This document shows, in pieces, positions 2,208 through 48,264 of a stretch of DNA of 64,000 nt; positions within the stretch are counted from its first letter, which is position 1, and the number at the start of each line of letters is the position of its first letter. The stretch lies in assembly GCF_054482525.1 (NCBI RefSeq), contig NZ_CM137006.1; one strand, 5' to 3'. The notes beneath the pieces were generated by a model. That model saw only the letters and a list, made by a program, of their open reading frames with translations. It made no database searches and was not told the origin of the DNA. Both the position numbers and the translations under genes were made by a program.

Positions 2208-3326
2208 ATGCATAACCAGGCTCCAATTCAACGTAGAAAATCAACACGTATTTACGTTGGGAATGTGCCGATTGGCGATGGTGCTCCCATCGCCGTACAG
2301 TCCATGACCAATACGCGCACGACAGACGTCGAAGCAACGGTCAATCAAATCAAGGCGTTGGAACGTGTTGGCGCTGATATCGTCCGTGTCTCCGTACCGA
2401 CGATGGACGCGGCAGAAGCGTTCAAACTCATCAAACAGCAGGTTAACGTGCCGCTGGTGGCTGACATCCATTTCGACTATCGCATTGCGCTGAAAGTAGC
2501 GGAATACGGCGTCGATTGTCTGCGTATTAACCCTGGCAATATCGGTAATGAAGAGCGTATTCGCATGGTGGTTGACTGTGCGCGCGATAAAAACATTCCG
2601 ATCCGTATTGGCGTTAACGCCGGATCGCTGGAAAAAGATCTGCAAGAAAAGTATGGCGAACCGACGCCGCAGGCATTGCTGGAATCCGCCATGCGCCATG
2701 TTGATCATCTTGATCGCCTGAACTTCGATCAGTTCAAAGTCAGCGTGAAAGCGTCAGACGTCTTCCTCGCTGTTGAGTCTTATCGTTTGCTGGCAAAACA
2801 GATCGATCAGCCGCTGCATCTGGGGATCACCGAAGCGGGTGGCGCGCGCAGCGGGGCGGTTAAATCCGCCATTGGTTTAGGTCTGCTGCTGTCTGAAGGC
2901 ATCGGCGACACGCTGCGCGTATCGCTGGCGGCCGATCCGGTTGAAGAGATCAAAGTCGGTTTCGATATTTTGAAATCGCTGCGTATCCGTTCGCGAGGGA
3001 TCAACTTCATCGCCTGCCCGACCTGTTCGCGTCAGGAATTTGATGTTATCGGTACGGTTAACGCGCTGGAGCAACGCCTGGAAGATATCATCACTCCGAT
3101 GGACGTTTCGATTATCGGCTGCGTGGTGAATGGCCCAGGTGAGGCGCTGGTTTCTACACTCGGCGTCACCGGCGGCAACAAGAAAAGCGGCCTCTATGAA
3201 GATGGCGTGCGCAAAGACCGTCTGGACAACAACGATATGATCGACCAGCTGGAAGCACGCATTCGTGCGAAAGCCAGTCAGCTGGACGAAGCGCGTCGAA
3301 TTGACGTTCAGCAGGTTGAAAAATAA
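2208..3326 (+). CDS. ispG: HMBPP synthase IspG (GcpE)
   Basis: 372 aa. The translation [36 protein letters not shown] and the C-terminal CPTCSR...GCVVNGPGE Fe-S motifs fit IspG. Confidence 0.96.
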
Positions 3327-3436
3327 TAACGTGATGGGAAGCGCCTCGCTTCCCGTGTATGATTGAACCCGCATGGCTCCCGAAACATTGAGGGAAGCGT
3401 TGAGGGTTCATTTTTATATTCAGAAAGAGAATAAAC

Positions 3437-4711
3437 GTGGCAAAAAACATTCAAGCCATTCGCGGCATGAACGATTACCTGCCTGGCGAAACGGCCATCT
3501 GGCAGCGCATTGAAGGCACACTGAAAAACGTGCTCGGCAGCTACGGTTACAGTGAAATCCGCTTGCCGATTGTAGAGCAGACCCCGCTATTCAAACGTGC
3601 GATTGGTGAAGTCACCGACGTGGTTGAAAAAGAGATGTACACCTTTGAGGATCGCAATGGCGACAGCCTGACTCTGCGCCCTGAAGGGACGGCGGGCTGT
3701 GTACGCGCCGGCATCGAGCATGGTCTTCTGTACAATCAGGAACAGCGTCTGTGGTATATCGGGCCGATGTTCCGTCACGAGCGTCCTCAGAAAGGGCGTT
3801 ATCGTCAGTTCCATCAGTTGGGCTGCGAAGTTTTCGGTCTGCAAGGCCCGGATATCGACGCTGAACTGATTATGCTCACCGCCCGCTGGTGGCGCGCGCT
3901 GGGTATCTCCGAGCACGTAACTCTTGAGCTGAACTCTATCGGTTCGCTGGAAGCACGAGCCAATTACCGCGATGCGCTGGTGGCATTCCTTGAGCAGCAT
4001 AAAGAAAAGCTGGACGAAGACTGCAAACGCCGCATGTACACTAACCCGCTGCGCGTGCTGGATTCAAAAAATCCGGAAGTGCAGGCGCTTCTCAACGACG
4101 CTCCGGCATTAGGCGATTATCTGGACGAGGAATCTCGTGAGCATTTTGCCGGTCTGTGCAAACTGCTGGAGAGCGCGGGGATCGCTTACACCGTCAACCA
4201 GCGTCTGGTGCGTGGTCTGGATTACTATAACCGTACCGTTTTCGAGTGGGTGACTAACAGTCTCGGCTCCCAGGGCACCGTGTGTGCAGGCGGTCGTTAT
4301 GACGGTCTGGTGGAACAACTGGGCGGTCGTGCAACACCGGCTGTCGGTTTTGCGATGGGCCTCGAACGTCTTGTATTGTTAGTACAGGCCGTTAATCCGG
4401 AATTTAAAGCCGATCCTGTTGTCGATATATACCTGGTGGCTTCAGGTGCTGATACACAATCTGCGGCTATGGCATTAGCTGAGCGTCTGCGTGATGAATT
4501 ACCGGGCGTGAAATTGATGACCAACCACGGCGGCGGCAACTTTAAGAAACAGTTTGCCCGTGCTGATAAATGGGGTGCCCGCGTTGCTGTGGTGCTGGGT
4601 GAGTCTGAAGTGGCTAACGGCACAGCAGTAGTGAAGGATTTGCGCTCTGGTGAGCAAACGGCAGTTGCGCAGGATAGCGTAGCCGCGCATTTGCGCACGT
4701 TACTGGGTTAA
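3437..4711 (+). CDS. hisS: Histidine--tRNA ligase
   Basis: 424 aa with a GTG start. Class II aaRS motifs are present ([24 protein letters not shown]; GGRYDGL). Confidence 0.96.
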
Positions 4712-18209: not shown

Positions 18210-18226
18210 GTTACCGTTGAGGTAAT
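18210..18226. promoter_or_regulatory. Dyad site O2 (GTTACC-GTTGA-GGTAAT)
   Basis: Perfect TTACC-N5-GGTAA just upstream of the first leftward gene. Confidence 0.6.
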
Positions 18227-18344: not shown

Positions 18345-18929
18345 TTATTGTTTGCTTTTTTCGTTCTGGTTGATGACAAATTCAATGTAACTTTCGATCT
18401 TTGCTTTCTCGGTTTCGGGTAACAATGCGTAGCGCGAGCGGTCATAGTTGATAGTCGCAGGGTCGTGCGGGTGAATCAGTAATTCATAGCCGTGACGCCC
18501 GAATGCGGATGCAACATTCTCCAGGGTGGAAATGGAAACGCTGACCTCATTGTTTAACAGGCGGCTGATTGTCACCTGGGCGACGCCGGATGCGCGGTGA
18601 AGTTTTCCCTGTGTTGAAAGGTCGCGGCTTTCGCTCATCCAGCGTTCCAGGTTGTGAGCCGCCAGCTGACCAATGTCGCTTGGGCCGACAGGCTGAAAAC
18701 CTTCCTGAGAAAGCGAGCGATCGATATCAAGCCAGTTACGGGGTTTATTGGCGGCAGCTTCAATTTTTCGCGCAACCTGGTCGCCGATAACCTTCTTACC
18801 AAGAGCCCAGCGGTTTACCAGATTTGCCTGAGTTCCAAGTTTTTCTGCCATCCGCGTCTGAACACCATTGAATTCACGGTCGATCAAGTCGTTGAGATTT
18901 TGCCTGCGGACGTCCTGGATACTTTTCAT
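18345..18929 (-). CDS. Prophage repressor with two XRE-type HTH domains and no S24 peptidase domain
   Basis: 194 aa. HTH 1 reads VQTRMAEKLGTQANLVNRWALGKK and HTH 2 reads LHRASGVAQVTISRLLNNEVSVSISTLENVASAF. It is divergent from a cro-like gene, and no Ala-Gly or Ser...Lys autocleavage module is seen. Confidence 0.7.
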   Translation of the reverse strand: MKSIQDVRRQNLNDLIDREFNGVQTRMAEKLGTQANLVNRWALGKKVIGDQVARKIEAAANKPRNWLDIDRSLSQEGFQPVGPSDIGQLAAHNLERWMSESRDLSTQGKLHRASGVAQVTISRLLNNEVSVSISTLENVASAFGRHGYELLIHPHDPATINYDRSRYALLPETEKAKIESYIEFVINQNEKSKQ

Positions 18930-26611: not shown

Positions 26612-28083
26612 CAGATACAGCGTTATCTCCTGAAGAGCAGTTAATTGAGGATATTGCAGGGTTCACTCACGATCCGCTTGGCTATGCCCTCTATGCGTTC
26701 CCGTGGGGGGAAGAGGGGACTGAACTGGCACATGCTACCGGCCCACGTCAGTGGCAGGCCGATGCGTTCCGAGAGATACGTGATCACCTGCAGAATCCAG
26801 AGACGCGTTATCAGCCGCTTATGCTGGCACGTGCTTCTGGTCACGGTATTGGTAAATCCGCATTCATCTCAATGCTCATCAACTGGGGCATGTCCACTTG
26901 CGAGGATTGTAAGGTCGTGGTGACCGCCAACACCGACAACCAGCTACGAACGAAGACCTGGCCGGAAATTATCAAGTGGTCGAACCTTGCTATCACGAAA
27001 GACTGGTTTACCTGTACCGCTACCGCGATGTACAGCAATGACCCTGGGCACGACAAGCGGTGGCGGGCTGACGCAATACCCTGGTCTGAGCACAACACTG
27101 AGGCATTCGCCGGACTACACAACGAGCGCAAACGCATCATCGTGGTGTTTGATGAAGCGTCGAACATTGCGGATCTGGTGTGGGAAGTTGCCGAGGGTGC
27201 GCTTACGGACGAAGACACTGAGATTATTTGGGTGGCGTTCGGAAACCCTACACGTAACACCGGGCGTTTTCGCGAATGTTTCCGCAAATATAAACACCGC
27301 TGGAAAACTGCGCAGATTGACAGCCGGACGGTGGAAGGCACTAACAAACAGCAGTTGCAGAAATGGGTTGATGACTACGGGGAAGACAGCGACTTCGTTA
27401 AAATCCGTGTGCGTGGCATATTCCCTGATGCATCTGAATTGCAGTTTATCCCTACCGGTCTTACTGACGAGGCAATGAAACGGGTGGTAACCGCTGCGCA
27501 GGTTGCACATGCTCCGGTGATAATCGGCGTTGACCCGGCATACTCCGGCGTTGATGACGCTGTGATATACCTGCGGCAGGGGCTACACAGTAAGGTGCTG
27601 TGGACTGGCAACAAGACTACCGACGATCTGATTATGGCGAAGCGTATCGCTGACTTTGAAGACCAGTATCAGGCTGACGCGGTGTTCATCGACTTCGGTT
27701 ACGGAACCGGTTTGAAGTCAATCGGTGACGGCTGGGGTCGTACATGGCAACTTGTTCCGTTCGGTGGCGCGTCTACTGACCCGCAGATGCTCAACAAGCG
27801 TGGGGAGATGTTCAACTCATGCAAGACATGGCTGAGGCTCGGTGGCATGCTGGATGACCAGGAAACAGCGGACGACCTGTCGGCAGCAGAGTACAAAGTT
27901 CGAGTGGACGGTAAAATCGTTATCGAACCGAAGGAAGATATCAAAGAGCGACTTGGGCGTTCTCCTGGTAAAGGCGATGCGCTACTGCTGACGTTTGCGT
28001 TCCCTGTGTCGAAGCGTCTGCGAATTCCCGGTCAGCAGAACCAGCAAGGCAAGGCCATCACAGATTACGATCCCTATGCTTAA
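26608..28083 (+). CDS. terL: Terminase large subunit
   Basis: 491 aa with a Walker A-like ASGHGIGKS, VVFDEAS (Walker B) and a C-terminal nuclease region. It is coupled to terS. Confidence 0.8.
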   Translation: MTDTALSPEEQLIEDIAGFTHDPLGYALYAFPWGEEGTELAHATGPRQWQADAFREIRDHLQNPETRYQPLMLARASGHGIGKSAFISMLINWGMSTCEDCKVVVTANTDNQLRTKTWPEIIKWSNLAITKDWFTCTATAMYSNDPGHDKRWRADAIPWSEHNTEAFAGLHNERKRIIVVFDEASNIADLVWEVAEGALTDEDTEIIWVAFGNPTRNTGRFRECFRKYKHRWKTAQIDSRTVEGTNKQQLQKWVDDYGEDSDFVKIRVRGIFPDASELQFIPTGLTDEAMKRVVTAAQVAHAPVIIGVDPAYSGVDDAVIYLRQGLHSKVLWTGNKTTDDLIMAKRIADFEDQYQADAVFIDFGYGTGLKSIGDGWGRTWQLVPFGGASTDPQMLNKRGEMFNSCKTWLRLGGMLDDQETADDLSAAEYKVRVDGKIVIEPKEDIKERLGRSPGKGDALLLTFAFPVSKRLRIPGQQNQQGKAITDYDPYA

Positions 28084-28794: not shown

Positions 28795-28871
28795 TGGCGC
28801 GGCATGCAGGATTCGAACCTGCGACCAACCGCTTAGAAGGCGGTTGCTCTGTCCAACTGAGCTAATGCCAC
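28795..28871 (-). tRNA. tRNA-Arg (anticodon UCU), 77 nt with encoded CCA
   Basis: Hand-folded cloverleaf: acceptor GTGGCAT/ATGCCGC, D arm GCTC-AGTTGGACA-GAGC, anticodon arm ACCGC-CTTCTAA-GCGGT, T arm GCAGG-TTCGAAT-CCTGC, discriminator G, then CCA. Confidence 0.85.
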
Positions 28872-33242: not shown

Positions 33243-33680
33243 ATGATCACCGACAAACTGTTGATGTTCTCCGAAGCTCAGGCGGTTACGAATACCGCGG
33301 CTTCTACTGACGTAATCGATCTCGGTCCAATTGACGGAAAACGTCGTGATATCGGCGTGGGTTACCCGCTTGAGTTTTGGGTGCTGGTTAACGCAGCCGC
33401 CGCAGCAAGCGGTGATGCAACTGTAAACATCCAGTTGCAGACGAGTGAGAATAACACCTCATGGACCACTATTTATGATAGTGGCGCACTGGTAAAGACC
33501 GCCCTGACAGCAGGTAAACGAGTTGTTTCTGCAAAGGTGCCTGCCGGTGTTCAGCGATATCTGCGTGTTAACTACTCCGTCGCAACTGGCCCACTAACGG
33601 CTGGCGAATTCACTGCTGGTATCAGTCTTGATGTTGATGCCAATACGCCGTATCCGATCCGCTCAAAAGTAACTGGTTAA
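33243..33680 (+). CDS. Capsid decoration/cement protein candidate (Bbp16-like)
   Basis: 145 aa directly after the capsid gene, with a beta-rich composition. The family assignment is from memory only. Confidence 0.4.
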   Translation: MITDKLLMFSEAQAVTNTAASTDVIDLGPIDGKRRDIGVGYPLEFWVLVNAAAAASGDATVNIQLQTSENNTSWTTIYDSGALVKTALTAGKRVVSAKVPAGVQRYLRVNYSVATGPLTAGEFTAGISLDVDANTPYPIRSKVTG

Positions 33681-33690
33681 GGTGATATCG

Positions 33691-34026
33691 ATGTCAGGTG
33701 AGAAACCAAGATACCGCGTTCTGCGCCTCTCTCATATCCATAACACTCTGTGGCCGGAGGGGGCAGAAATCGAATACGAAGGTGAGCCTGGTAGCGCACT
33801 GGAACCTGTTAACGATGCAGCCAGACAGGCAAAAGCAAAAGTTGCAGGAAAGGTGTCAATGGCAGCAACCAGCACCAAAATCATCAACGATGTGTCAGAT
33901 GATGGTGAACTGGATAAGCTCCGTGAAGAGTACGAATTGCTCTTTAACGAGAAGCCACACCATAACGCCAAAGCTGAAACGCTCCGCGAGAAGATCGCAG
34001 ATAAGCGTAAAGAACTGGGCGTGTAA
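33691..34026 (+). CDS. Hypothetical structural-region protein
   Basis: AAGGTGA lies 5 nt before the ATG at 33691. Confidence 0.45.
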   Translation: MSGEKPRYRVLRLSHIHNTLWPEGAEIEYEGEPGSALEPVNDAARQAKAKVAGKVSMAATSTKIINDVSDDGELDKLREEYELLFNEKPHHNAKAETLREKIADKRKELGV

Positions 34027-34042
34027 GCCTCGCGAATCAGAC

Positions 34043-34064
34043 AAGGGGCTTCGGCCCCTTTATT
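34043..34064 (+). terminator. Hairpin with UUCG loop plus T-rich tail
   Basis: AAGGGGC-ttcg-GCCCCTT-TATT. Confidence 0.5.
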
Positions 34065-34076
34065 GCAGGAGTGTAT

Positions 34077-46055: not shown

Positions 46056-46601
46056 TTATTCCTTCCATTTATCAGAAAAAAGATCTTCTTCTAAAGGCAT
46101 TGGTTCTGTTTTTGTTTTCTCAAAGAATTGATAACTGATAGTGATTGCTGCCTCTTTAAACTCTTCTTGCTCAGTTATGTTGTGGGCATCTGCGTCAACA
46201 AAAAACATAACCAGCGCATCACGATTGTGATTTACCGAATAAACTAAAAAGCAATTACTTGTTGGTATGCATTTTACTTGCACAGACGCTATTTTTTTCC
46301 ATGCATCCCAAGATGATTTTTTACCAGTGTGTTTTTTATCACTATCTTCTGGAATATAGTCTTGGTTATCGACATGAGTATGCCTGACATTTAGTTTAAG
46401 CATTTCTGTCGGACGAGCAAATGCAGCATCTTTACCAAGAGATGGATGGTATCCCGTTTTCCAATACTGGGTAAAGGCATCAGATACTTTCTTCAGCTCA
46501 AGATCAGATGCACAAAGGGCCGAGAAATTTTGCGTATGCAATACTCGACCCTTATATCTGACAATTTGATTTTTATCATTCTGCGACGCAGACGAACTCA
46601 T
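46056..46601 (-). CDS. YafO-like toxin domain protein (putative ribosome-dependent mRNA interferase)
   Basis: It starts at MSSSASQ after AAGGAAAATT. The pattern F.QYWKTGYHPSLGKDAAF....LKLNVRHTHV...TSNCFLVYSVNHNRDALVMFFVDADAHN parallels the E. coli YafO pattern F.SYKRDGVLPDIFGRDALY...VAHIHL...DEAHLVYCQG...AWLLIAILKPEPH. Confidence 0.45.
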   Translation of the reverse strand: MSSSASQNDKNQIVRYKGRVLHTQNFSALCASDLELKKVSDAFTQYWKTGYHPSLGKDAAFARPTEMLKLNVRHTHVDNQDYIPEDSDKKHTGKKSSWDAWKKIASVQVKCIPTSNCFLVYSVNHNRDALVMFFVDADAHNITEQEEFKEAAITISYQFFEKTKTEPMPLEEDLFSDKWKE

Positions 46602-46755
46602 AATTTTCCTTATTGTTACGAGAATCAAAGAAAGCGCGGGATACGCGACTTGCGTGATCTTTTGTCATAGTAACTTTTACGCACTCTACGCTTCCATTGA
46701 AAGAACGTCTTGCGGCAGCTTGCGCTCTACGCATCTGCAATTTTTCGTTTCGCAT
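46576..46755 (-). CDS. 59-aa basic protein upstream of and overlapping the YafO-like gene (candidate antitoxin/regulator)
   Basis: MRNEKLQMRRAQAAARRSFNGSVECVKVTMTKDHASRVSRAFFDSRNNKENYEFVCVAE. A GAGGT SD lies 6 nt upstream, and it overlaps the downstream start by 26 nt. Confidence 0.3.
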   Translation of the reverse strand: MRNEKLQMRRAQAAARRSFNGSVECVKVTMTKDHASRVSRAFFDSRNNKENYEFVCVAE

Positions 46756-46814: not shown

Positions 46815-46831
46815 TTTACCCTTGAGGTAAT
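46815..46831. promoter_or_regulatory. Dyad site O11 (TTTACC-CTTGA-GGTAAT)
   Basis: Perfect TTACC-N5-GGTAA. Confidence 0.55.
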
Positions 46832-46902: not shown

Positions 46903-47598
46903 TCAGAAGAACCCTGCCTTGTCGTTGATGTACTCCGCGTGCGTCTGGATATCACGCAGGCATTTGCTCACACCGACGATGTAGCAGAACATGGTGGTCA
47001 GCTCCGCCGCCGCGCCCGATACGTCGTGCCCGTCGTCCTGTAACTGGTTCAGCAGATTCATCAGCAGTGAGTTCTCCGTCAGGCCGAGAACACCAGACGG
47101 CGAATGAATCAGGCTGCGGTAGCCGGGCTTCAGTGGGGCACTGTAGGTTTTGTTCTCTATCTTCATCGCCTGCATCACTGCTGATGCTGTGGCGTTGGCT
47201 ACCTGGTCGGCAACCATCTTTATGCGCTCTTCCTGCGGGAGCGAGTTTTTAATGTAACTTCCGGTGCGGCGGATCTGAGGAAGAACCTCACCTGTAACCC
47301 ATTTACGAAAGCGGTATGGGATAGTGCCTGGTGTCACTGCGTCGCGGCAGCGGAGGATCAGTGTGTAGAGGCCTGACTCGGAGATGATGATCGATTCTTG
47401 CTCACCGCCAGGGGTGTCGGTTGAAGCGACGCCCTTCTCATCATCATCAAGTTTTCGAACAGCATCTCGATGGTTTGCTATGCCTATAGCCCGACAAACA
47501 TCTGAAGCGATAAACCATGGCTCACCATTAATGACGATTACTCGTATATCGGCTTGGGATTCGAAAGAAAAAATGGACGTGCTTTTTGTAGCTGTCAT
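46903..47598 (-). CDS. Bro-N domain antirepressor-like protein
   Basis: 231 aa. The N-terminus FESQADIRVIVINGEPWFIASDVCRAIGIANHRDAVRKLDDDEKGV is a typical Bro-N domain. The C-terminal 70 aa are paralogous to the ORF at 47914-48186. Confidence 0.7.
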   Translation of the reverse strand: MTATKSTSIFSFESQADIRVIVINGEPWFIASDVCRAIGIANHRDAVRKLDDDEKGVASTDTPGGEQESIIISESGLYTLILRCRDAVTPGTIPYRFRKWVTGEVLPQIRRTGSYIKNSLPQEERIKMVADQVANATASAVMQAMKIENKTYSAPLKPGYRSLIHSPSGVLGLTENSLLMNLLNQLQDDGHDVSGAAAELTTMFCYIVGVSKCLRDIQTHAEYINDKAGFF

Positions 47599-47754
47599 AG
47601 TGGTTACCTTTTAGTCTGGTTAATCACCACTACCGACGCCAATCGGTTGGTGGTGAGCTGTGCAGGGTTGGCGTAACCGGCTAAAAGGACCCGGCGCACC
47701 TTTCGGTGCCCCCACACAGCCCACCATAATACGAATGTGGCCGTGCTATACGCA

Positions 47755-47776
47755 TAAAAAAACCGCTTGCGCGGTG
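47755..47776 (-). terminator. Intrinsic terminator inside the Ant leader
   Basis: On the minus strand, ACCGC-gcaa-GCGGT is followed by TTTTTTTT. Confidence 0.65.
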
Positions 47777-47875
47777 AATGCGCCTTTTAGTAATCCGGGA
47801 CGCCAATCCCGGCACTGGATTTTGCCAGTGCCCGATTACTATGGCACAAGAGGAGTGCGATGTAAATTTACCGCA
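47755..47875 (-). ncRNA. Predicted short leader transcript (about 120 nt) from the operator-overlapped promoter to the intrinsic terminator
   Basis: The promoter at 47882-47910 and the terminator at 47755-47776 are on the same strand. In between lie the hairpins GGCACTGG/CCAGTGCC (47811-47832) and CCGGGA-cgccaa-TCCCGG (47795-47812). Confidence 0.3.
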
Positions 47876-47883
47876 AAGGTAAA
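47867..47883. promoter_or_regulatory. Dyad site O12 (TTTACC-GCAAA-GGTAAA)
   Basis: Perfect dyad covering the predicted start site of the promoter at 47882-47910. Confidence 0.6.
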
Positions 47884-47910
47884 TATAAGCACTTCATTTG
47901 GTAATTGCAA
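47882..47910 (-). promoter_or_regulatory. Sigma70 promoter TTGCAA-17-TATATT (Ant leader promoter)
   Basis: On the minus strand, the -35 is TTGCAA (47905-47910), the spacer is 17 nt, and the -10 is TATATT (47882-47887). Confidence 0.55.
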
Positions 47911-47913
47911 ACC

Positions 47914-48186
47914 TTATCTGGTTTGTTTTCGTAATTGTTCGGCACAATAGTCGAGATGTGTTTGCAGATCCTGCATAGACATCTGTGAGCTGGTGACGTA
48001 GTTAATCAGTGCAGTCAGTTCGGCAAGTGGGCCATCGACATTAAATCCATCCTTATCTAGATCCCGGAGTAATTTCATCAAGTGCGATCCCTCCACCAGT
48101 GACTTGACGCCTCCCGGCGTGTGAATCCTTTCGGTAAATCCGTCTTCCAGTGGATAGTGATACTGCTGCATCTTAATCTTCTCCAT
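47914..48186 (-). CDS. Small LexA-controlled protein homologous to the Ant C-terminal domain (candidate SOS antirepressor)
   Basis: A 90-aa ORF. The likely real start is the ATG at 48171 (85 aa), 9 nt after GGAG. IHTPGGVKSLVEGSHLMKLLRDLDKDGFNVDGPLAELTALINYV...MQDLQTHLDY aligns with Ant IHSPSGVLGLTENSLLMNLLNQLQDDGHDVSGAAAELTTMFCYI...LRDIQTHAEY. Confidence 0.6.
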   Translation of the reverse strand: MEKIKMQQYHYPLEDGFTERIHTPGGVKSLVEGSHLMKLLRDLDKDGFNVDGPLAELTALINYVTSSQMSMQDLQTHLDYCAEQLRKQTR

Positions 48187-48193
48187 GCAATAA

Positions 48194-48209
48194 CTGTATA
48201 TTTATACAG
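48194..48209. promoter_or_regulatory. LexA (SOS) box CTGTATATTTATACAG
   Basis: Perfect CTGT-N8-ACAG with an all-A/T spacer inside TAACTGTATATTTATACAGTAT. On the minus strand it contains a TATAAA -10 candidate. Confidence 0.8.
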
Positions 48210-48247
48210 TATCAAATAATTTGTTTGCTATCCAGCACGTTTTGCAA

Positions 48248-48264
48248 ATTACCTAAAAGGTAAT
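48248..48264. promoter_or_regulatory. Dyad site O13 (ATTACC-TAAAA-GGTAAT)
   Basis: Perfect dyad overlapping the rightward promoter TTACCT (48249-48254), 17 nt, TATATT (48272-48277) for the tailspike gene. Confidence 0.6.

Follow-up and report, generated by a model that had tools for sequence, protein, structure and literature searches.

We analysed a window of 64,000 nucleotides from an Escherichia coli chromosome (NCBI RefSeq assembly GCF_054482525.1, contig NZ_CM137006.1). Judged by the DNA of the region, which matches phiV10, TL-2011b and related Uetakevirus phages of E. coli at 95-98% identity, the window is an epsilon15/phiV10-type (Uetakevirus) prophage. Two neighbouring genes of this prophage, both on the minus strand, are the subject of this study: a small antirepressor gene, ant, and a gene whose product carries a domain homologous to the small protein behind a Bro-N head.

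46903-47598, minus strand: Bro-N-Ant fusion gene, 231 amino acids plus stop codon, identified with Pfam and PHROG
47278-47550, minus strand: Bro-N head of the fusion protein (PF02498), residues 17-107, with a helical linker after it
46906-47163, minus strand: Ant-like C-terminal domain of the fusion protein, residues 146-231, 42% identical to small Ant
47914-48171, minus strand: small antirepressor gene ant, 85 amino acids plus stop codon, by homology the ortholog of SPC32H Ant

One domain in two adjacent genes

An earlier note on this DNA, made by eye, had proposed that these neighbouring same-strand genes carry one homologous module, one copy of it fused to a Bro-N domain. Both open reading frames (ORFs) lie where the note put them (46903-47598, 231 amino acids; 47914-48186, drawn there with 90 amino acids), and the proposal withstands a proper alignment. 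Pairwise BLASTP of the Bro-N protein against the small ORF aligns residues 146-223 of the former with residues 3-80 of the latter in one segment without gaps, in line with the alignment drawn by eye, with 33/78 identities, 58% positives and E=2e-20. The similarity is real and far beyond chance, and the identity of 42% is somewhat better than the third or more that had been estimated. Pfam recognizes the Bro-N head at residues 17-107 (PF02498, E=2.3e-21, 76.7 bits against a cut-off of 25.6), and AlphaFold2 gives the head block-mean predicted local distance difference test (pLDDT) values of about 57-90, mostly 80-90.

The note had not recognized the C-terminal domain as a named family. As far as names go this stands: Pfam has no family for the shared C-terminal part of the Bro-N protein, NCBIfam gave no usable match for the domain, and phrog_450, a PHROG profile of 88 positions that matches the small ORF whole (E=8e-48) and residues 148-229 of the Bro-N protein (E=6e-36), is labelled 'unknown function', just as small Ant in RefSeq E. 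coli genomes is a 'hypothetical protein'. Matches of the small ORF to Pfam DUF724 and NCBIfam UpsF scored under their cut-offs and were discarded. By homology, however, the domain is that of Ant of Salmonella phage SPC32H. It is not anonymous, because the small ORF and the Bro-N C-terminus both match the crystallised Ant chain in PDB 5D50, the complex of SPC32H Rep with Ant: residues 7-89 of the small ORF align to residues 3-85 of chain 5D50_E ('Anti-repressor protein') with E=1.3e-46, and the C-terminus of the Bro-N protein matches the same chain with E=1.9e-13. The small protein, 86.7% identical to the annotated SPC32H ant product (tblastn), is by this homology the ortholog of SPC32H Ant.

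Sixteen alignment columns are invariant across the small-Ant and fused clades, and the polar residues invariant in both (S29, D41, E51, T71, H72 and Y75 in small-Ant numbering) are all kept. With Ant-family homology and these invariant residues together, the Bro-N C-terminus counts as a member of the domain family. Antirepressor activity of the whole Bro-N protein has annotation-level support from its match to phrog_130, 'anti-repressor Ant' (E=2e-62). PMC9638917 describes SPC32H Ant as a tetramer that binds two Rep dimers and breaks the Rep tetramer; by homology, the small protein of the window would likewise act as a tetramer, engaging the Rep C-terminal domains and so freeing the DNA of its repressor.

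Control of the small ant gene

Two elements precede the small gene.

48192-48211, minus strand: LexA box TACTGTATAAATATACAGTT at the ant promoter, by consensus match
48249-48263: dyad TTACC-N5-GGTAA ATTACCTTTTAGGTAAT, candidate Rep operator, by pattern search

The LexA box that the earlier note saw at the small gene is borne out by its rarity: TACTGTATAAATATACAGTT is the sole consensus match in the 64-kb window, where 0.01 would be expected. The box at the equivalent position in SPC32H reads TACTGTATGTTTATACAGTG, and from this conserved consensus box LexA control of small ant is predicted. SPC32H ant is reportedly repressed by LexA, and Rep is said to stay uncleaved and to be inactivated by Ant. 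The start codon drawn in the note, by comparison, has to be moved. The ATG at 48186 is an unlikely start because the LexA box ends only 5 nucleotides (nt) before it, without room for a ribosome-binding site. The next methionine, at 48171, is the likelier one; it has GGAG upstream at 48181-48184, and both SPC32H ant and phiV10p24 begin at the equivalent methionine. From these features the real product most likely has 85 amino acids, five codons fewer than drawn.

The dyad at 48249-48263 adjoins the TTGCAA hexamer of the ant promoter on its upstream side, within the control region shared by ant and the divergent tailspike gene, and SPC32H has the same arrangement of dyad and hexamer at the same place. 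The unit is like the SPC32H Rep-Ant-LexA switch (PDB 5D50, 5D4Z) in its ant ortholog, in the LexA box of the promoter and the dyad upstream, in the divergent tailspike gene that adjoins ant, and in a Rep that is homologous over its full length. It is unlike that switch in what follows ant: SPC32H has neither a second Ant-domain gene nor a C4/IsrK cassette, and its ant leads directly into a terminator and convergent structural genes.

A predicted antisense RNA switch before the Bro-N gene

The spacer between small ant and the Bro-N gene, 315 bp long, is filled with control elements. From the end of ant towards the Bro-N start codon these are:

47882-47910, minus strand: promoter-like site TTGCAA-17-TATATT, immediately 3' of the ant stop codon
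47868-47882: dyad TTACCGCAAAGGTAA, a candidate operator for Rep, flanked by the promoter-like sites of the Bro-N cassette
47838-47866, minus strand: second promoter-like site TTTACA-17-CATAGT with an upstream TG, by hexamer match
47756-47831, minus strand: IsrK-like small RNA (sRNA), matching Rfam RF01394 with 77.9 bits (gathering score 50)
47646-47731, minus strand: C4-type antisense RNA, matching Rfam RF01695 with 79.2 bits (gathering score 45)
47607-47643, minus strand: C4 target sites in the Bro-N leader, by complementarity to the C4 loops

The earlier note had described a promoter with a repressor dyad and a leader terminator. Pattern search places the dyad at 47868-47882; across four phages its half-sites are invariant and its central 5 nt variable. 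The hexamers of the promoter-like site at 47882-47910 are conserved in phiV10, in the Enterobacter phage Tyrion and in the Klebsiella phage ST11-OXA245phi3.2 (phi3.2), and the second promoter-like site stops 6 nt short of the first base of the IsrK-like RNA. The terminator is real as well, with a stem at 47762-47775 and a T-run (a U-run in the RNA); it is the intrinsic terminator that ends the IsrK-like sRNA, and C4 follows. Since the terminator belongs to the IsrK-like sRNA and a C4-type antisense RNA comes next, control of the Bro-N gene is, to judge from these elements, an RNA switch of the P1-immI/Gifsy-1-isrK type and not simple attenuation. We found no minus-strand terminator between the ant stop codon and the IsrK terminator; transcripts started under LexA control may consequently run as far as the IsrK decoy and stop there.

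The C4 match covers the full length of the covariance model (model positions 1-87 of 87) and recurs in phiV10, TL-2011b, Tyrion, phi3.2 and locus L171. Its loop a' (CCUUUUAG, 47681-47688) is exactly complementary to CUAAAAGG at target a2 (47607-47614), a site that includes the Shine-Dalgarno sequence AAGG, 8 nt before the Bro-N ATG. Its segment b', ACGCCAA (47668-47674), is complementary to UUGGCGU within target b2 (AUUGGCGUC, 47635-47643). Both target motifs are repeated within the IsrK-like RNA, where they form the decoys b1 (AUUGGCGUC, 47799-47807) and a1 (CUAAAAGG, 47783-47790), and perfect or G-U complementarity extends over 7-9 nt at all sites. An Rfam c4-a1b1 match that overlaps IsrK reached 45.1 bits against 46.7, under the gathering score, and folding of the leader gave z=-4.8.

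The pairing partners change together between phages. Loop, decoy and target read CCUUUGUAG/CUACAGAGG/CUACAAAGG in Tyrion, where the b pair is AGACCAA/UUGGUCU, and the comparison with Tyrion and phi3.2 yields a further co-changed set, CCGUUUAG/CUAAACGG/CUAAGCGG. Compensatory changes hit loop, decoy and target alike in both relatives. Such three-way covariation is strong comparative evidence for what would be a working antisense switch. A leader ORF of the icd/orf45 kind (35 codons, 47620-47727) was considered and rejected; its frame is not conserved, and indels break it in phi3.2.

Two known systems have the same kind of layout. The immI region of P1 and P7 (c4-icd-ant1/2) has C4 loops with their target sites, co-variation of these between P1 and P7, and a characteristic arrangement of promoters and operator. 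The window resembles immI in its full-length C4 match, in loops that pair with a1 b1 and a2 b2, in a downstream site that covers the ribosome-binding site, in loop and target sequences that co-vary between phages, and in tandem promoter-like sites with a candidate repressor operator. It differs from immI in the family of the primary repressor and in lacking a conserved icd-like leader ORF, with C4 apparently targeting the antirepressor's own Shine-Dalgarno sequence. P1 Ant was absent from the results of all searches with the Ant domain. In the second system, that of Gifsy-1, IsrK acts in trans to switch on translation of AnrP, the antirepressor encoded downstream (PMC4825925, Hershko-Shalev et al. 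2016). Like the window, the isrK-orf45-anrP region has an IsrK match with its terminator, then a C4-like RNA, known in Gifsy-1 as STnc1160, and an antirepressor whose head is of the KilA-N type; AnrP (33513-34076 in Gifsy-1) has an ORF6N head, and an ORF6N-Ant variant exists in the E. coli relatives of the window. Unlike Gifsy-1, the window has no orf45 equivalent, and the C-terminus of AnrP is unrelated to the Ant domain. BLAST detected no similarity to AnrP in the Gifsy-1 ORF downstream of dinI, and the shared domain was not seen there. We take this ORF to be the LexA-controlled GfoA. AnrP and N15 gp30, the latter a Bro-N head with a C-terminus likewise unrelated to the Ant domain, fit a general pattern in which C4/IsrK-controlled antirepressors would combine a KilA-N-type head with a phage-specific tail.

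Rep and its candidate operators

Both Ant-domain proteins presumably have a common target, the prophage repressor Rep, which is encoded elsewhere in the window.

18345-18929, minus strand: prophage repressor Rep, 194 amino acids, matching SPC32H Rep (5D50_A) over its full length, E=3.5e-42
starts at 18211, 18273, 18985, 19033 and 19370: dyads flanking rep/cro, by pattern search

Counting TTACC-N5-GGTAA with at most 1 mismatch, we found 17 matches in the 64-kb window against 1.3 expected and 18 in SPC32H against 0.5 expected, the latter with three on each side of rep and one at the ant promoter, P_ant. Three of those in the window are near the two ant genes, starting at 46816, 47868 and 48249. 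This distribution suggests that the dyad is probably the Rep operator of the whole phage group. Further dyads start elsewhere in the prophage (21272, 21334, 25983, 26001 and 29194), often as pairs 48-62 bp apart, and the scattered sites are probably the Rep regulon of epsilon15-like phages, much larger than one rep/cro switch.

Rep of the window is only 43% identical to SPC32H Rep. When the phages of E. coli are compared with those of Salmonella, the identity of small Ant is 87% and that of Rep 43%, and the operator half-sites are the same. The Pfam HTH_3 match in Rep falls in its C-terminal half, at residues 106-147.

Two paralogs and exchangeable heads

The earlier note called the small protein a stand-alone copy of the Bro-N protein's C-terminal domain, and this direction of derivation is not supported. 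Small Ant and Rep form the conserved core of epsilon15-like phages, and the fused cassette is accessory, because it is absent from the Salmonella members and frameshifted in phiV10. Pairwise identities are 54-86% among small Ants, 41-77% among fused domains and 31-50% between the two clades; by these values the two copies are old paralogs in separate clades, not a recent duplication. One stand-alone protein of 84 amino acids, P0142, is of the small-Ant type in its first half and of the fused type in its second, a chimera that suggests recombination between the two paralogs.

The family is small. An exhaustive profile search of 1.8 billion representative proteins returned only 62 members, either stand-alone proteins of 82-95 amino acids or C-terminal domains behind Bro-N, AntA, Phage_pRha and ORF6N heads; a word-indexed protein search with small Ant gave close stand-alone relatives only, and with the C-domain alone few matches. 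The fused domain occurs on five KilA-N-type heads, namely Bro-N, AntA, ORF6N, P22_AR_N and Rha, and is known only from genomes that also encode this Rep family. In E. coli prophages its last ~75 residues (PLKPGYRSLIHSP...KAGFF) keep an identity of at least 98% whichever of four heads, Bro-N, AntA, ORF6N or P22_AR_N, precedes them. Exchange of heads on a constant tail fits a C-terminal specificity module.

The P22_AR_N fusions recall the immI region of P22 (mnt-arc-ant, sar), with a P22_AR_N head under Arc and sar and the Ant-like C-domain replacing the C-terminal part of the P22 protein. This variant is found in TL-2011b and 8 loci of IMG/VR. The window differs in lacking such a P22_AR_N-headed third copy; it holds two Ant-domain copies only. 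In TL-2011b (region 844-2028) the protein, gp42, is a 314-amino-acid P22_AR_N-headed 'Ant' with a C-domain 92% identical to the fused copy of the window, and its gene is preceded by a gene for an Arc-like repressor and by a sar antisense RNA. The Ant-domain proteins of TL-2011b consequently number three, one controlled by LexA, one by C4/IsrK and one by Arc/sar.

Free exchange of heads with retention of the tail could also be read differently, with the module serving merely to tetramerise the Bro-N head, or acting as a decoy that poisons or buffers small Ant and so sets a threshold in a dominant-negative manner. The tetrameric state of SPC32H Ant, as given in PMC9638917, would suit such a role, as would the poor monomer model of the C-domain (pLDDT <50 in the AlphaFold2 model of the Bro-N protein, built from a 20-sequence alignment), which is what an obligate oligomer would lead one to expect. 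We nevertheless consider a scaffold or decoy distinctly improbable. The whole 86-amino-acid SPC32H Ant both tetramerises and binds Rep, with no separate scaffold part known; a pure scaffold would need no restriction to Rep-bearing phages; and P22_AR_N fusions under Arc/sar, like the C4/IsrK wiring, are classic antirepressor contexts.

Distribution of the pair

Among 50,697 phage records, Rep homologs were found in 36 and small Ant in 35, and the two lists contain essentially the same epsilon15-like phages. The Ant-like C-domain as query matches 32 records, every one of which is also in the Rep list. The fused copy is present in 19 phage records, all with small Ant as well, and small Ant occurs without it in all Salmonella members and in PAS61, YDC107_2, BUCT554 and BUCT711. 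Identity of the fused domain parallels that of Rep: it is 98-100% in phages with a Rep 99% identical, 78% in those with 78% for Rep, and 53% in those with 45%. A common Rep target is supported by this parallel divergence and by the confinement of the fused domain to phages that encode Rep.

The same figures bear on the idea that the fused domain targets some other repressor, either the Rep of a heteroimmune epsilon15-like phage or that of another resident prophage, in which case the cassette would serve competition or coordination between phages and not induction of its own prophage. Ant of P1 and of P22 works mainly upon superinfection, which would suit this idea. So would the name 'anti-immunity' that the phiV10 annotators gave to the Bro-N gene, and the identity of only 42% between the fused domain and small Ant, which belong to separate old clades. 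Trans-acting antirepressors are, moreover, known in Salmonella (PMC3121763). We regard such cross-talk as unlikely, given that the domain is confined to genomes with this Rep family and diverges in parallel with the resident Rep, that the cassette promoter has the same dyad as the rep region, and that all polar residues invariant across both clades are retained.

The pair also keeps together in related prophages. IMG/VR holds 80 loci whose small ant is identical at 98% or more, and in 74 of these isrK, C4 and the fused Ant domain lie downstream. One truncated locus still shows isrK, C4 and the Bro-N head; two have the small gene alone, and two more are too short downstream to tell. A further copy of the Ant domain lies on the other strand in 15 of the 80. 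Besides E. coli, the pair is present in Citrobacter werkmanii, 'Ca. Erwinia dacicola', Klebsiella and Enterobacter, and a scan of species-representative genomes for the locus gave 3 loci. In one divergent relative from a metagenome, small Ant is 56% identical and comes with a dyad and a LexA-like box; this relative also carries C4/IsrK and a Rha-Ant fusion, the latter in convergent (opposite) orientation. In complete E. coli genomes the small gene was found in 528/5,426 and DNA of the fused domain in 469/5,426.

The fused gene is not intact everywhere. In phiV10 the Bro-N gene (3012-3691) is frameshifted inside the Ant-like domain, giving a 194-amino-acid ORF and a 29-amino-acid ORF, and the same frameshift, shared by three related records, is present in O157 typing phages 9 and 10; the phiV10 lineage may have no functional fused copy. 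This lesion, the polymorphism in presence and absence, the swapped heads on near-identical tails, which point to recent recombination, and extra inserts in the region could all be taken to mean that the cassette is a redundant or decaying accessory, a mobile moron that recombines among prophages with no measurable role in the switch. Such a view is hard to square with the reading frame being intact here and in most relatives, with a pair kept across five genera and in the 56%-identical metagenomic relative, with the 469/5,426 complete E. coli genomes that carry the fused domain, or with the three-way RNA covariation, which shows selection on the control element; we give it little credence. Among the three rival explanations, namely another target, a scaffold or decoy, and a redundant moron, none is favoured.

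Other features of the prophage

Directly downstream of the Bro-N gene, the stretch 46056-46755 holds, on the minus strand, a 190-amino-acid ORF with weak similarity to YafO toxins (Pfam, 23.2 bits, just under the cut-off) and an overlapping ORF of 59 amino acids; a Rep-type dyad at 46816-46830 precedes both, and the two may be a toxin-antitoxin moron. The prophage carries a tRNA gene of its own at 28798-28871 on the minus strand; its counterpart by position in SPC32H is a tRNA-Arg. Near the left end of the window, at 3326-3417, is the sRNA sroE of the host.

Discussion

The earlier note had offered three options for the pair: a two-tier induction switch, a decoy/competitor pair or a shared repressor-binding domain. 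A shared repressor-binding domain within a two-tier switch fits the evidence best. Specifically, we propose that the locus is the prophage's region of secondary immunity and induction, where one Rep-binding module is placed under two inputs, the SOS response and an immI-like RNA switch, and acts on the prophage's own Rep, a reading to which we assign a probability of roughly 0.6.

In the first tier, host LexA would repress small Ant and DNA damage would lift the repression; by homology to SPC32H, the Ant tetramer would then bind the C-terminal domains of Rep and take Rep off its operators. In the second tier, the promoter or promoters of the Bro-N-Ant cassette, with their Rep-type operator dyad, would be silent while Rep is active, and the C4-type antisense RNA would further block translation by pairing with the Shine-Dalgarno region of the Bro-N gene. 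The IsrK-like sRNA from the same leader, with its decoy C4 targets, could relieve the C4 block as an anti-antisense RNA. The tiers would be coupled when small Ant inactivates some Rep, with the cassette derepressed and more antirepressor made, in the manner of a feed-forward latch. Towards an incoming phage, the cassette could work as an anti-immunity function like those of P1, P22 and N15, with specificity set by the C4 loops. We infer this order of events from the arrangement of the elements and their homologies.

Several observations weigh against the proposed switch. First, the cassette is absent from Salmonella epsilon15-like phages, from E. coli phage PAS61 and from YDC107_2 (same Rep), and it is dispensable in nature, as the frameshift within the C-domain in the phiV10 lineage also indicates. 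Second, 27/81 loci have an insert of 0.9-1.2 kb between the two units, and direct transcriptional coupling is thus not universal; these inserts, between small ant and the IsrK element, carry opposite-strand ORFs (203 and 151 amino acids in locus L012, 2756-3910). Third, the dyad is a candidate Rep operator by its distribution, and binding of the fused protein to Rep is predicted from homology. At 42% identity to small Ant, the partner specificity of the fused domain could differ. Fourth, small Ant is far more conserved than Rep, and co-divergence of Ant and Rep is therefore not strict. Finally, the low-confidence AlphaFold model of the C-domain lends no independent confirmation to its predicted fold.

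A bolder extension of the two-input switch is that free and fused Ant domains co-assemble into mixed tetramers, joining the SOS and RNA-switch inputs in one particle, which we think improbable. If it were true, the KilA-N-type head would give the particle a second activity, such as DNA tethering or a second target, and epsilon15-like phages would be a natural system for learning what Bro-N heads do.

The individual parts are all known, from SPC32H Ant, Rep and LexA to C4, IsrK and Bro-N, and two-tier designs are known from N15, P1 and P22. For N15, PMC4488713 describes an SOS-controlled AntC and an immA operon (antA-icd-antB) under a small processed RNA. The window shares with N15 this two-tier logic of a LexA-controlled antirepressor and an RNA-controlled anti-immunity operon, and the Bro-N head of N15 gp30 (27064-27858) is 44% identical to that of the window. 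The two tiers of N15, however, are at separate loci, whereas those of the window are adjacent and use a homologous effector domain; for the C-terminal half of gp30, no stand-alone paralog was detected in N15 at the level of BLAST. We found no description of two tiers with a homologous effector domain, nor of Bro-N antirepressors of these prophages that end in the solved Ant domain, with the limit for both that the primary SPC32H papers could mention fused homologs.

Few phage regulators are annotated as often, or understood as little, as the Bro-N/KilA-N 'antirepressors'. In the present case, such a protein ends in a domain whose structure and mechanism are solved, in the form of the SPC32H Ant tetramer. 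Repressor specificity can be assigned to this C-terminal module because the same domain works without a head in the same genomes, and the role of the Bro-N head becomes a clean, testable question. The arrangement would not surprise a specialist in phage regulation, but it gives a clean handle on what Bro-N heads contribute. Three layers of control that mostly receive separate study, LexA/SOS, a C4/IsrK antisense switch and the phage repressor's own operator, would meet within 1.4 kb of DNA, a region carried by about 9-10% of the complete E. coli genomes. The finding bears on which prophages, including the phiV10/TL-2011b types associated with O157 and O103, DNA-damaging antibiotics induce, and also on which may be inducible by other signals or by superinfection.

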